Shown one piece after another: positions 2,820-54,615 of a stretch of DNA of 64,000 nt (the first letter of the stretch is position 1; every line of letters starts with the position of its first letter). This stretch comes from Octopus sinensis (lineage: Eukaryota). The stretch spans positions 179,676,001 through 179,740,000 of the forward strand of contig NC_042997.1 of assembly GCF_006345805.1 (NCBI RefSeq), given 5' to 3'. The notes under the pieces were generated by a model, which had not been told where the DNA came from, ran no database searches, and saw only the letters and a program-made list of their open reading frames with translations. A program made the translations under genes and the position numbers.

Positions 2820-3030
2820 ATGTTACCGCGTGTGTATCGTTGGCGATCTTCTTTCTCCGTCTTCCCTTTTTTGAACCTTTCCTTTTCCTAAGTTTCTGAC
2901 GAAGAGCTCCGCTCGAAACGTTAAGTCCTCATTCTTTCTTTCCTTTCCTGCGCGTCCAAGAACACTATACTTGTTCCACGTCCTCGCGTTGTTGTGTTTT
3001 CTTTTTGTTCATGTTTGGATTAACTATATA
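2820..3030 (+). mobile_element. Short non-coding element with hammerhead motif (Penelope-like pLTR or retrozyme-like)
   Basis: Flanked by (TA)n-type repeats. Its 3' end (CACGTCCTCGCGTTGTTGTGTTTTC...TTTGGATTAACTATAT) recurs at ~63563-63618. Confidence 0.7.
2891..2926 (+). ncRNA. Minimal type I hammerhead ribozyme motif
   Basis: AGTTT-CTGACGA-A-GAGC-TCC-GCTC-GAAACGTT-AAGT: intact core boxes, 4-bp helix II, palindromic AACGTT in place of helix III, partial helix I. Confidence 0.75.
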
Positions 3031-3149
3031 TGTTTGTATGTATGTATGTATGTATGTATGTATGTATTTATCCATGTGTGTTTATGTGTGTGCGTGTGTC
3101 TGTGTACATATGTATATGTAAATGTACATAAATATAATATGTATATCCA

Positions 3150-4000
3150 TAAACCGCGGAAAAACAACAAATAAGTGGATATCGGAAACGAACTGTGGGG
3201 GTATATAAAATGTATAAAACGATTTGGAGATAATACTCTGATCCTAAAATAACTGATAAAAAGCGAGAATAATAATAAACAAGCATTATTAATTTAGATC
3301 AAAAGAAAAATATGATTTATTAGAAATGGAGAAAAATTAGGTAAAAGCGTATCGAAGAGAATTTGGAAGATACCTCTCCGAACGTCCAGGGTACTGAGGG
3401 CAGCAAATAGAAAGAAAGGAAGAAGATCAGGAAATAAAAAAATAAGATTAAAGCTGGTATAATCAACTATATTGAGCTCATGGATACCTAGTAAATATAT
3501 TCAATTAATTAATGCAAGTTGCATTGAAATCTTATACCCATCTAATAGCAGAAAGCTCTTTATTGCTATTCAGAACACGGGGAACAAAAGTAATATAGAT
3601 TCATCAACTGATTCTCCTAACAGTCTCTAAATATCGACCCCTTTAGAGAGTGATAAACTCTATGAATACTCGAAAAGAGAAACAAAAAAAAAAAAACATC
3701 GTACTATTATTACAGCTAACAGAATCTTGGGCTGCAAATATCAATTACTGATCAAGAAAGCTGCCATTTACATAAAAACAAAGGTCAAAATTATAAATCA
3801 TGTAAAAGATAGATTCACTAACTGCATCAATTGATTGCAAGAAAATATATTCCTATTTCCCATGACTATATAACGAAAACACTAAAAATATGACAAATTC
3901 CACGCTATCGTAACACCTCAACATATTAGTAAAAACGTAAATCATATAATGTAAGGAAATGATCATCTAAATACAAAGGTAAACATCATAAGGAGTTCAA
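3150..4000 (+). mobile_element. Highly degraded non-LTR retrotransposon remnant (R4/Dong-like)
   Basis: A-rich decayed coding-like sequence with a YRP-like remnant near 3630; resembles the other Dong-like copies only loosely. Confidence 0.3.
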
Positions 4001-5062
4001 AAGTATTACGTATATCTTCTAATAAGATTCTTCGCCTCAGCTGATCCTCAACATTTCTCAATTCTGTAACTACCATGAATGTATTGTGCAAAGCGATGAT
4101 GCATCAGGCTACGCACTTAAGAATGAGCTCCTCTCTCCCCTCCCCTCTCTCTCTCTGTCTGTCTTTCTCTCTCTCTCTCTCTCTCTGTCACTCTTCGCCC
4201 ACCTCTCTATCTCTCTATTAGTTTACATCAAATTGATGACGACGCTGTATATTTTGCTGAGCTGATGAAAAATTGCCCGCTTTTTTGTTCTGCTTGTACT
4301 GTATTGTTTTAGTATTGTTTACATACAGTTATTCCTCCTGTGCATTGTACAGCCGTAAAGCAATTTCCATTGCATATGTACCATTCCTTGTCTGCTGTAT
4401 CTTGTCATTTCTTATTATACACGCAATGTTATTCTGTCCTGTCCTCGCACATATTTGTCAGCTGTTCCCTGTAGGTCTAAGCATTGACCATTCTTAAAAT
4501 ACCACATGCTACTTCTCCCAATACTTAGTCTCTCGGTACCCTATGCATTCACCCCTTCATCATCTTGATATATTTCTCTGACCTCTTATCCAACACTCAA
4601 CATACCTCCTCCTACCGCTACTACTACCTTGCCTCCTACTATACCTATTTTACCTTCAAATTTCCCTGCATAATGATCTGATACGTTAGACACTTATCTA
4701 TCCACCTTCATGAAGGAGGATCTGGAGTTTACCAATGTTTGTTTGATTTCATTACCGGCTGCAAATTTTGGATCAGCTACATCTACCAGCATTATGAAGT
4801 AACTTCAAGCCCCTCGAAAATGCTCTGGAACTTGTAATGCCTTCTCCCCTCTAATTCCTTCAGTCTATATAATTTTAGTGAGTTTTCTCTATAAACAATA
4901 TCTATCTATCTATCTATCTATCGATCTATCTATTATCTATCTATCTATCTATCTATCTATCTATCTATCTATCTATATATATATATATATATATATATAT
5001 ATATATATATATATATATATATATATATATAGAGAGAGAGAGAGAGAGAGAGAGAGAGAGAT

Positions 5063-5525
5063 TTGAATGGTTGTTGGTTTCACCAGGATGGTGCCACACC
5101 CCACTATGCCATCGATATCAGGGAATACTTGAATGAAGTTTTTCGGGAGAGATGGATGAGGCGAGGATATTCAATAACTCTCGATTGGCCTCCCAGAAGT
5201 CTAGACATCACGTCTATAGAGCATTATCAAGGAAAGTTTCACAAGAGCAATACCAGAATAGCCAACAGTTTAAGGATGCTGTCTCGGCAGCCTTTGCAAC
5301 AATCACCAAAGCACAGCTTCATAAAATATCACATAGGACATGGTGCCGCATCATTTTGTGCTACGAAAATGATGATGTACATACAGACCTCGATTTGTGA
5401 CAGTGTCAAAGTTTAAGGAAAGTGAATATACTAAAACCAGTACATGCGTTTGATATTTTTATAGTGTTCTGCTATTGTTCTTATTTCTTTTCGGTAGGGA
5501 GAGACAAAACTTTCGGACTACCCTG
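5063..5525 (+). mobile_element. Tc1/mariner-superfamily transposon 3' fragment (transposase C-terminus and right TIR)
   Basis: WFHQDGATPHY and WPPRSLDIT motifs, frameshifted into QQFKDAVSAAFATIT...WCRIILC. Ends in GACAAAACTTTCGGACTACCCTG, a TIR-like terminus. Confidence 0.85.
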
Positions 5526-5919
5526 TGCATGCATTATATACTTGATCATTTATCGCCTCCTCTTTTTACATGTATACTTACATATATATATTTTGTACAT
5601 TAAAACACAACGTTCTGTCTGTTTATTTGCATTATAAATCAACAGATAAATTATAATTACTCATTATTCTGCTGACTTGGTCCGCTTTGAAGATATCGCA
5701 TTTCAAATCATTTGAGCGCTACCAAGTGTTTTCTATTTGAGATTTTCTCGATCTCATCCGTTGATCATATATATATATATATATGTGTGTGTATGTGTTT
5801 GTGTGTGTGTGTGTATGTGGTGTGTGCGTGTGTGTGTTCCCTTGTGTGCGCAGGTATGTATAAGTATGTGTACACATCAACAAACATAACAAATTGAGTG
5901 AAGCAGAGCTGTAAAATAT

Positions 5920-52764: not shown

Positions 52765-53085
52765 TATGTATGTATGTATGCATGTATGTATGTATGTATG
52801 TATGTATGTATGTATGTATGTATTTATGTACGTATGTATGTATTTATGTATGTATGTATGTACTATGTATGTATTTATGTATGCATGTATGTATGTACGT
52901 ATGTATGTATGTATATATGTATGTATGCATGTACGTATGTATGTATGTATGTATTTATGTATGTATATATGTATGTATGTATGTACGTATGTATGTATGT
53001 ATTTATGTATGTATATATGTATGTATGTATGTATGTATGTATGTATGTATGTATGTATGTATGTATGTATGTATGTATGTATCTA
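52765..53085. repeat. (TATG)n microsatellite, ~320 bp
   Basis: Directly visible. Confidence 0.95.
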
Positions 53086-54227
53086 TGTGTGTATGCATGT
53101 CATTTCCTAAATTAGAATATTTTACAATAGCACTGGTTTCTAGCAATGAGGCAAAGGTCTATCGCAGTGATCTCTGATTTGGATAAGCAGGAAATGCTTG
53201 AACTTCAGGAAAAGTCCTCTATATGTGTGTGTGTGTGTATGTTTACATGGATGTATGGATATATGTATGTATGGATATATGGCTGTATGGATATACGTAT
53301 GTAAGTATTCGTATGTATTTTGTTCATGTGTGTGTGTGCGCGCGCATGCGTATGTGTACGTGTGTCTGTATTGTTTACATAACTAGAATTTAGAAACTTC
53401 AAAAGTTACGAAATAACGTGTTTTTAACGACAGATACATTTATAAATAATAACATGTAAAATATTGGGTTCAAACACCATAATCGAAGGAAAACGTTGAA
53501 GATGGCCTGGGAGAAAGCATCTGAACCGCTTTCAGGTTACGTTTGAAAATTACATATTTGCTAGTTTCTTCTTTGCCTGTATCTCTTAGGCTTTTTGTAA
53601 ATTGCAACTTAGACATTTTTTAACATAATCAAATGCACAACTAATTACACAGCATTACAAAATCAAAAAAAAAATGTCTTCTTTAGTAAGTGATATTTTG
53701 AGTGATTGTAACTAATTTTAGGGTCATCGTTCTGAATATGAAATCAGTTTTATTCCATCAATCATAGATTTTGATCGACAAGCTATTCCCAATATACAGA
53801 ATTTATAGAAATGTAATGTAGAATACAGTGCTTCTAGTGTTTTTATTTGTTTCTGAAATATGCCTTTGATCTTTTTGTGACAGCTTTTAATGAGAAAACT
53901 GTAAAAGTAGATATAACACATATTAAGATCATATCTATTTTTAGAACACTTTGACTTAATGTTTCAGATTTTATAGTGACTTGTACCAAAGTGGTAGAAG
54001 ATGTATTCACTGTGGACTGCTATTTTTTAAAATTGTATTTATATTTCTCCACTTCAATTTGCTTCAATTTGCTTCAGTCTACAAGGATTCAAGACGAAGC
54101 TTGCAGACTAAACTGAATGCTTGGCGCCACATATTGTATGCAAACGTTGCTGGGATCGGTTTCTTTGTGATCTAGTGGCAAAATGAAGCAAATGCCATGC
54201 AACCATTTTACTGATTGTTAATTTTGT

Positions 54228-54280
54228 GAAGGCGCATGGCTCAGTGGTTAGAGCGTCAGTCTCACAATCAAGAAGTAGTG
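54228..54280 (+). mobile_element. SINE family C tRNA-head remnant
   Basis: GGCGCATGGCTCAGTGGTTAGAGCGTCAG. Confidence 0.6.
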
Positions 54281-54569
54281 GAGAGCTGTGTTAAACTTGG
54301 AATCTTTTGACAGTCATTTGACTCTGATGGGCAACCAGTCAAAATGCTGAAAGATATCTTTCCTCGATTAAGTAAAGCAAAATTTAAAGAAATTTAAAGA
54401 AAACCAGAACGATGAGCTTACGGTGCTGTTAAAGACAGTTCAAATCTGGTGGTGGTGGTGGTGTGGTGGTGGTGGTGGTGATGATGATGATGATGATGAT
54501 GATGATGATGATGATGATGATGTCGACTCATACCTTAAAAATAAGAACCCAAGTTCGAAATTTCACCAA

Positions 54570-54615
54570 GACACCTGATGAAGGCTGGTGGGTATATCAC
54601 CCGAAACGTTGTGTT
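54570..54615 (+). ncRNA. Minimal type I hammerhead motif in a short element (~54522-54665)
   Basis: GACAC-CTGATGA-A-GGCTG-GTGGGTATAT-CACCC-GAAACGTT-GTGTT: 5-bp helix I, helix II 4/5, palindromic AACGTT. Confidence 0.75.

Follow-up and report, generated by a model that had tools for sequence, protein, structure and literature searches.

The question raised by this locus is what kind of element could place several different hammerhead ribozymes within one short stretch of an octopus chromosome. The stretch, called the window here, comprises 64,000 nucleotides (nt) of the genome of Octopus sinensis (contig NC_042997.1, forward strand; G000:C1:179676001-179740000; genome size 2.72 Gb), with 34% G+C and an abundance of microsatellites. 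A preliminary description, made from the letters of the window alone, proposed a diverse set of ribozyme retroelements without open reading frames (ORFs). The analysis presented here leads to a more familiar answer. The motifs are very probably minimal hammerheads in the 3' untranslated regions (3'UTRs) or pseudo-long terminal repeats (pLTRs) of at least four families of Penelope-like elements (PLEs), present as 5'-truncated or inverted copies. They would cleave when paired, and lone copies would be silent. PLE ends of this kind are known, and one has been reported for a Hydra element of an octopus; the motifs are placed among them because their inversions, one-sided tails and (TA)n flanks match the published anatomy of PLEs (PMC4209133, PMC8557442). 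The window ribozymes are, in this respect, ordinary for PLEs.

The motifs were scanned with a structural descriptor that demanded the core, a helix II of at least 4 pairs, a self-complementary spacer, a UH cleavage site and a helix I of at least 3 pairs. This descriptor was composed after the loci had already been seen. It matched the window five times, at 1976(+), 2896(+), 18071(-), 18285(+) and 54575(+), in contrast to a mean of 0.017 and a maximum of one match in 300 local dinucleotide shuffles (500-nt blocks), so the motif frequency is not that of shuffled sequence. The motif at 48333(-) falls outside the set because its first helix II pair (10.1-11.1) is U-U, which is its sole failing point. 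There are thus six intact motifs in the window, and each of them has the CUGANGA...GAAA...UH core together with helices I and II. The five cores named in the preliminary description (2896, 18285, 18071, 48333 and 54575) lie exactly where it placed them, and each has the palindromic spacer in place of helix III, followed by GUU (2896, 54575) or GUA (18071, 18285, 48333); the motif at 1976 is an addition from the structured scan. Its reading of minimal type I hammerheads of the PLE kind is borne out, and the self-complementary spacers are suited to dimers, as it had supposed. Its two degenerate cores fared less well. The one at 49344 is a genuine member of a further family, E, cut through the core and without the 5' strand of helix I. 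The one at 12759 has no CUGANGA core, and its region matches the genome only once, at itself. Looser core matches at 44403, 28765, 26365 and 13123 failed the structured scan and were dropped.

No PLE ORF adjoins any window copy in tblastn searches, and to this extent the claim that no reverse transcriptase (RT) or GIY-YIG ORF is attached was correct. It does not extend to the genome, where families A, B, C and D run into PLE ORFs. These four families are the 3'UTR or pLTR ends of PLEs, and the matching RT or GIY-YIG ORFs occur in the same genome. Judged by sequence features, B appears to belong to an open Hydra-type element with RT and endonuclease, C to a decayed Hydra-type element, A to a decayed Neptune-type element and D to a decayed Penelope/Poseidon-type element.

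Family B provides the clearest link. Its main arm in the window (18169..18576, plus strand; hammerhead 18282-18361, GUA site 18358) is a putative Hydra-type 3'UTR end that terminates in (TA)n and is 89–92% identical to 3'UTRs located behind open frames of 865–923 aa elsewhere in the genome. With an endonuclease-like frame upstream of a B copy (locus L058) as the search query, the hammerhead-bearing UTR was found within 1.5 kb in 29 of 30 loci picked by the endonuclease. Among 12 regions selected for long frames, at least 8 held frames of 865–923 aa with RT motifs and a C-terminal endonuclease, and in L155 the hammerhead lies about 620 nt past the stop codon. By eye, the B ORFs contain DKT, RWL in place of RWK, CxxC and CxH around E and N, no CCHH, and a C-terminal endonuclease. 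These Hydra-clade features, together with the (TA)n targets (20/21 flanks), match section 11 and the supplement of PMC8557442. The CxCX5C linker before the endonuclease is absent from the B ORFs examined, and for this reason B is labelled Hydra-type and not filed as a member of the clade. A more distant B-like subfamily (L163 5948-6043, L033 1010-1105, L120 1907-2001) displays compensatory changes in helix II and another palindrome, and its endonuclease end in L033 is 69% alike to that of B. A further Hydra family seems to reside in the genome, as an RT remnant (L011 26-322, minus strand) is nearer by eye to the published Hydra-1_Obim than to B.

The links of the other families are more decayed. 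Family C (48143..48406, minus strand; hammerhead 48336-48236, perfect palindrome, GUA site 48239) has Hydra-type endonuclease remnants upstream on the same strand in two of eight regions, L255 (E 3e-11) and L252 (E 3e-5). The window copy of family A (2812..3025, plus strand) is short, flanked by TA repeats and 90% identical to the long copy L264. Its hammerhead (2892..2926) has a 4-bp helix I with two G-U pairs, a 4-bp helix II, an ACGU palindrome and a GUU site at 2922. A 3' fragment of the same family, downstream of the hammerhead and thus free of a ribozyme, lies at 63552..63612 (plus strand; 90% over 61 nt). An upstream extension is present in 3 of 30 A copies, and when it served as the query, each of the 10 loci fetched ran on into the A end. 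When three loci were followed further, two (L270+L272, L264+L273) reached Neptune-type remnants of RT and endonuclease about 2 kb from the ribozyme. They include C-X4-C-xx-C in L273 and a GIY-YIG-like stretch in L272 and L273, both broken, which fits the Neptune combination of a CX2-5CxxC linker and GIY-YIG.

Family D is represented in the window by its body (54502..54685, plus strand; hammerhead 54570-54615, a C-C mismatch in helix II, GUU site 54610), which has lost the tRNA-like head discussed below. In L011, a GIY-YIG-like frame stops just upstream of the element. Among 30 loci picked by the L011 protein, 25 contained the head, 24 the body and 21 both, placed immediately behind the stop codon, and L022 shows a pLTR, then the start of an ORF, then a second pLTR. 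The Penelope/Poseidon clade is marked by a C-terminal GIY-YIG with CCHH and no Zn-finger linker; the D endonuclease has CxC and two His and no Cys linker, and its Atlas score is 0.97, whereas the RT core was not recovered. The Atlas neighbours of the B and D proteins, at 0.94–0.98, belong mostly to HTH_animal or GIY-YIG clusters.

The anatomy of the copies is equally telling. First-look searches returned 1531 candidates for A (2896), 2324 for B (18071/18285), 134 for C (48333), 3640 for D (54575) and 2598 for a fifth intact family, F (1976); these totals are not copy numbers. One exact 21-mer from the D hammerhead occurs 6876 times genome-wide. The flanks do imply several families, as first described, although 18071 and 18285 are not two of them: they are the arms of one inverted B insertion, 98–99% alike. 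The pair is head-to-head, and only the plus arm carries the 150-nt extension to a TA repeat, which is missing from the inverted arm (17933..18168, minus strand; hammerhead 18074-17995, GUA site 17998). In read-through RNA, the segment 17933-18410 would fold into a hairpin some 240 bp long, on which A-to-I editing or small-RNA processing would be likely to act. Inverted partners were common elsewhere: for B within 900 nt in 19 of 30 loci (15 distinct pairs), for C in 13 of 30 (some of them duplicates) and for D within 400 nt upstream in 17 of 30, with two more farther away. In the 14 inverted D arms that reach the 3' end, the 35-nt tail is always absent; the query that picked the main arms included the tail. 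The inversion junctions vary among D copies, so that amplification of one inverted master is an unlikely source of these pairs. At the 3' end, 27 of 30 A copies and 20 of 21 B copies are followed by TA repeats. Head-to-head inversions and one-sided tails of this sort are reported for PLEs (PMC8557442). Copies of A, B and E are often nested side by side in common TA tracts (L084, L085, L121, L147, L269).

Family F, a short PLE-like 3' end, has the same form. It is about 200 nt long and young (copies 95–98% alike), with near-fixed 5' ends (clustered in 6/6 loci), head-to-head inverted pairs and a 3' (TA)n. The window copy (1946..2154, plus strand) is 97% identical to genome copies, and its hammerhead (1973..2033, core at 1976) has a 3-bp helix I, a long helix II, a perfect 8-nt palindrome and a GUA site at 2030. 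Since its partner ORF was not found among the 6 loci seen, F is the leading candidate for a form truly without an ORF. A possible identity of F with the end of the published Naiad_Ovul was also considered, but words of F gave no match in the supplement of PMC8557442, where broken lines weaken the search. Words of A, D and E gave no match there either.

Pairing is maintained where the families vary. In an alignment of B (34 distinct rows, from 42 of 84 instances chosen for diversity), 94% of cells are paired and two-sided change occurs at 6 of 18 pairs, with compensatory changes in both helix II and the palindrome, so that helix covariation is present in a family alignment. The central palindrome pair is C-G in 15 rows, U-G in 15 and U-A in 3 of the 34. 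Pair 10.1-11.1 is G-C in A and D, with an unpaired base after A9, and is G-C (19 rows) or G-U (15 rows) in B, A-U in F and U-U in C. The palindrome self-duplexes are predicted at -1.7 kcal/mol for A and D, -6.0 for B of the window, -7.0 for C and -10.0 for F. In 51 D copies that were not chosen on the body, the core has 11 substitutions in 472 positions versus 219 in 4559 elsewhere (p=0.011), and N7 differs in 7 of 49. Many endonuclease-linked D copies (L167-L196) have small deletions through the hammerhead or the tRNA head, which may reflect hairpin-driven deletion or selection against intact motifs.

Several points weigh against this assignment. Pfam gave no RT or GIY-YIG match for the B or D proteins, and Pfam and PDB sequence searches named none of the PLE proteins; consequently, the clade names are drawn from motifs compared by eye with PMC8557442 and from Atlas. 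The ORF links of A and C come from two decayed loci each, and no partner ORF was found for F (6 loci) or E (21 instances). A has no inverted partner in any of 30 loci, and TA repeats end only 4 of 28 D copies. Relatedness inflates the covariation counts of B, and the controls do not remove it. The core is intact in only 25 of 47 spanning D copies, and helix I measures only 3–5 bp.

If the assignment to PLEs is right, the life of such copies might be pictured as follows. The RT and endonuclease of the element would copy its RNA from the 3' end into TA-rich targets. Copying would frequently end short and leave 5'-truncated copies, and the end of the cDNA could fold back to produce an inverted arm. 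The ribozyme, as a dimer, would process the tandem precursor RNA of an active element. Cleavage probably requires that two like copies pair through the palindrome, and a copy that stands alone in the genome is therefore likely to be silent. According to PMC4209133, monomers of a PLE minimal hammerhead failed to cleave, whereas its dimers or trimers cleaved weakly; the same paper reports that most genomic PLE minimal motifs are single and derive from truncated PLEs.

The origin of the numerous short D copies is a separate matter, on which the evidence is divided. About 32 nt past the stop codon, the D UTR contains a stretch for which an ungapped 72-nt alignment to a genomic tRNA-Arg(CCG) was obtained, with a score of 63 versus 28±4.5 in 500 shuffles. 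The reference is the intact gene at L021 2205-2279 (minus strand), about 550 nt from a D inverted pair. The head has consensus A and B boxes and decayed stems, and (AAT)n and then the hammerhead follow it. Short copies begin close to this segment: relative to the first base of the tRNA, the 5' ends lie between -19 and +21 in 19 of 20 body-picked copies with a head, and between -50 and +13 in all 30 head-picked copies. Genome-wide, 21-mers that start at successive positions number 420 (about -355), 679 (about -180), 805 (-31), 426 (-17), 531 (-8), 4118 (+3), 3492 (+27) and 6876 (hammerhead). They rise about 8-fold within 11 nt between -8 and +3; these ratios are rough because CpG content varies from one 21-mer to another and three of them were degenerate.

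Two causes that would make the tRNA a passenger, namely, stalling or fold-back of the RT at a hairpin in the UTR and a start by RNA polymerase II (Pol II) from a pLTR promoter, have between them a little under an even chance. An imperfect palindrome in the ORF-linked D UTR is centred at about -2 of the tRNA, and 15 of 30 head-picked copies are inverted about a palindrome at the tRNA 5' end. The 5' ends of A and F cluster near TCA words that resemble the initiator consensus, and neither family has a tRNA. However, non-inverted D copies also begin at about -9 to +7. The initiator-like word at -17 is accompanied by no rise in count (426 versus 805 upstream), and this initiator is unsupported as the D start. 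The likeliest single cause, held tentatively, would be transcription by RNA polymerase III (Pol III) from the tRNA-derived A and B boxes, followed by copying with the PLE enzymes, which would make the D short form a PLE-dependent short interspersed element (SINE). The ungapped tRNA match with both boxes, the step in 21-mer counts at the first tRNA base and the narrow range of 5' ends are consistent with this. So are the presence of the hammerhead body in 27 of 30 head-picked loci and the lack of a run of four T in the reference copy L190, the only copy checked. The 5' ends of B are spread from -86 to -700 with no such step, although the query start biases their short end. The case for Pol III is weakened by the clustered 5' ends of families without a tRNA (A, within 20 nt in 27/30 copies, partly set by the query; F, 6/6), by the palindrome at the same spot and by the roughness of the 21-mer ratios, and Rfam and ARAGORN neither score nor call the head as a tRNA. 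In either case, the short copies share the 3' end of the autonomous partner (head and body in 21 of 30 endonuclease-picked loci) and display inversions and one-sided tails of the PLE type.

A tRNA-headed PLE or a PLE-partnered SINE did not turn up in the literature searched, a scope that left out most subscription papers, Repbase and Dfam. Octopus SINEs derived from tRNAs were reportedly described by Ohshima and Okada in 1994, two of them said to be tRNA-Arg-derived; hence, the D short form may already bear a SINE name. Other tRNA-like SINE heads, unrelated in sequence to the D head, were noticed by eye in the window at about 49694-49800 and 54232-54285 (plus strand). The window also contains a 5'-truncated long interspersed element (LINE; 42312-44611, plus strand) that lies behind (AAT)n tracts and is presumably Dong/R4-like; it has a zf-RVT and ends in a restriction-like endonuclease. 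The (AAT)n tracts of D may be targets of this LINE because a matching stretch sits in the D tract of L195.

Family E raises a question of a different kind. It is a sister of A by alignment, and its window copy (49344..49460, plus strand) carries the interrupted core. At core position 6, 14,311 exact 28-mers in the genome have U or C, versus 156 with A, so the family does not hold the conserved A6. N7 takes each of the four bases within the first 100 instances listed, and in 21 instances the base at the cleavage site is mostly A or U. A free N7 within an otherwise fixed stretch suggests a constraint on the E core, and E may retain a working hammerhead with U for A6. A dead ribozyme carried along by a successful family fits the same counts too. 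A natural A6C hammerhead is described in PMC3088659, with k_obs under 0.1 per min. No A6U hammerhead turned up in the literature searched, and neither the tRNA-headed D nor the position-6 variant E was found there. The 2017 study of PLE hammerhead dimers by Lunse et al. may include position-6 variants. The combined proposal, in which a PLE captured a tRNA-Arg in its 3'UTR or pLTR and thereby gave rise to thousands of Pol III-started short copies with hammerheads while E kept a working U6 hammerhead, would have to be regarded as rather doubtful as a whole.

What, then, is left of the initial proposal of independent ORF-less retrozymes that form circles and can cut host pre-mRNA? Many copies are indeed short and ORF-less with fairly fixed ends, and such forms far exceed the ORF-linked ones (about 5–8-fold in D). 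No partner ORF was found for E and F, and a 2026 preprint argues that animal retrozymes derive from PLEs (10.64898/2026.07.22.740005). Nevertheless, the proposal is improbable. Four of the six families are PLE ends and not free-standing; the novelty is therefore lower, as the preliminary description had itself foreseen for this outcome, and the ribozyme call stands. Head-to-tail arrays were not seen in the sampled loci: a direct second copy was present within about 1.5 kb in 2 of 30 loci for D and in none of 30 for A, and direct second copies occurred in 1 of 30 B loci (diverged) and in 0 of 30 C loci. The motifs are minimal and not of the canonical type described for retrozyme arrays in PMC7229834. 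The copies here extend across the cleavage site, which implies that the RNAs they were copied from were presumably uncut. The B pair lies on opposite strands; thus, any transcript would carry a ribozyme together with an antisense of it. The motifs of F and A share a strand and lie 0.9 kb apart, but their palindromes differ. Since the monomer in PMC4209133 did not cleave and the window copy of D has a mismatch and has lost its head in addition to these obstacles, cleavage of host RNA from the window seems unlikely, and host pre-mRNA cleavage and circles are likewise unlikely for lone or inverted copies. As for chance matches to a short motif, 12759 is one such case and an Rfam search of the window (E<=1) returned no hammerhead, yet for the six intact motifs this origin is refuted by the shuffled control and by families of thousands of copies with compensatory changes.

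The reading as PLE ends still leaves room for wider consequences. If the D short form is driven by Pol III, it would illustrate a direct route by which a SINE arises inside its partner, would extend SINE partnership to PLEs and would offer a natural explanation for repeats of the SM-alpha kind, with tRNA and hammerhead. B, whose open ORFs are young and whose palindrome variants form a series of differing stability, and E, with a fixed core change in more than 14,000 exact copies, together form a test set for whether the spread of a PLE depends on cleavage by its hammerhead. Outside these families, the window holds decayed frames at 5033-5416 (minus strand) and 31053-31376 (plus strand) that resemble Tc1/mariner transposases by eye.

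A comparison with known systems places these elements more precisely. The PLE minimal hammerheads of PMC4209133 share the conserved core, the short helix I and the palindromic 15.2-16.2 segment, and they too are mostly single dispersed motifs, with some opposite-strand pairs 100–700 bp apart. In contrast, B, C and F here have helix II inserts of 36–76 nt and 8-nt palindromes, C and F have U-U and A-U at 10.1-11.1, and E has U or C at position 6; a search of that paper for molluscs gave no match. The non-LTR retrozymes (PMC7229834; bioRxiv 10.64898/2026.07.22.740005) are likewise short, ORF-less, hammerhead-bearing and linked to PLEs. However, they are defined by head-to-tail arrays of 170–400-nt units, not seen here in the sampled loci, with canonical type I hammerheads and abundant circles. 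The Hydra clade, which includes Hydra-1_Obim (Craig et al. 2021, PMC8557442), resembles B in the order of RT and C-terminal endonuclease, DKT, RWL for RWK, CxxC/CxH around E and N, the absence of CCHH, TA-repeat targets and a 3' hammerhead. B differs in that it is without the CxCX5C linker, has a long low-complexity insert and carries a hammerhead unlike the one listed for Hydra-1_Obim. Family D has two partial counterparts. Helenus/TRIMp3 (Kojima 2024, PMC10886601) also has a captured tRNA-derived sequence within its terminal repeat, for which a role as Pol III promoter has been proposed. It is, however, an LTR element of the non-autonomous kind, whereas D is a PLE with the tRNA segment in its ORF-bearing form. 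The SINE-like SM-alpha repeats of Schistosoma (reviewed in PMC6765202) combine a Pol III-type promoter with a hammerhead in one short repeat, as D does. They are described as often tandem and have canonical hammerheads, whereas D is dispersed or inverted with a minimal one, and the tRNA head of D lies within the 3'UTR of the ORF-bearing PLE itself.

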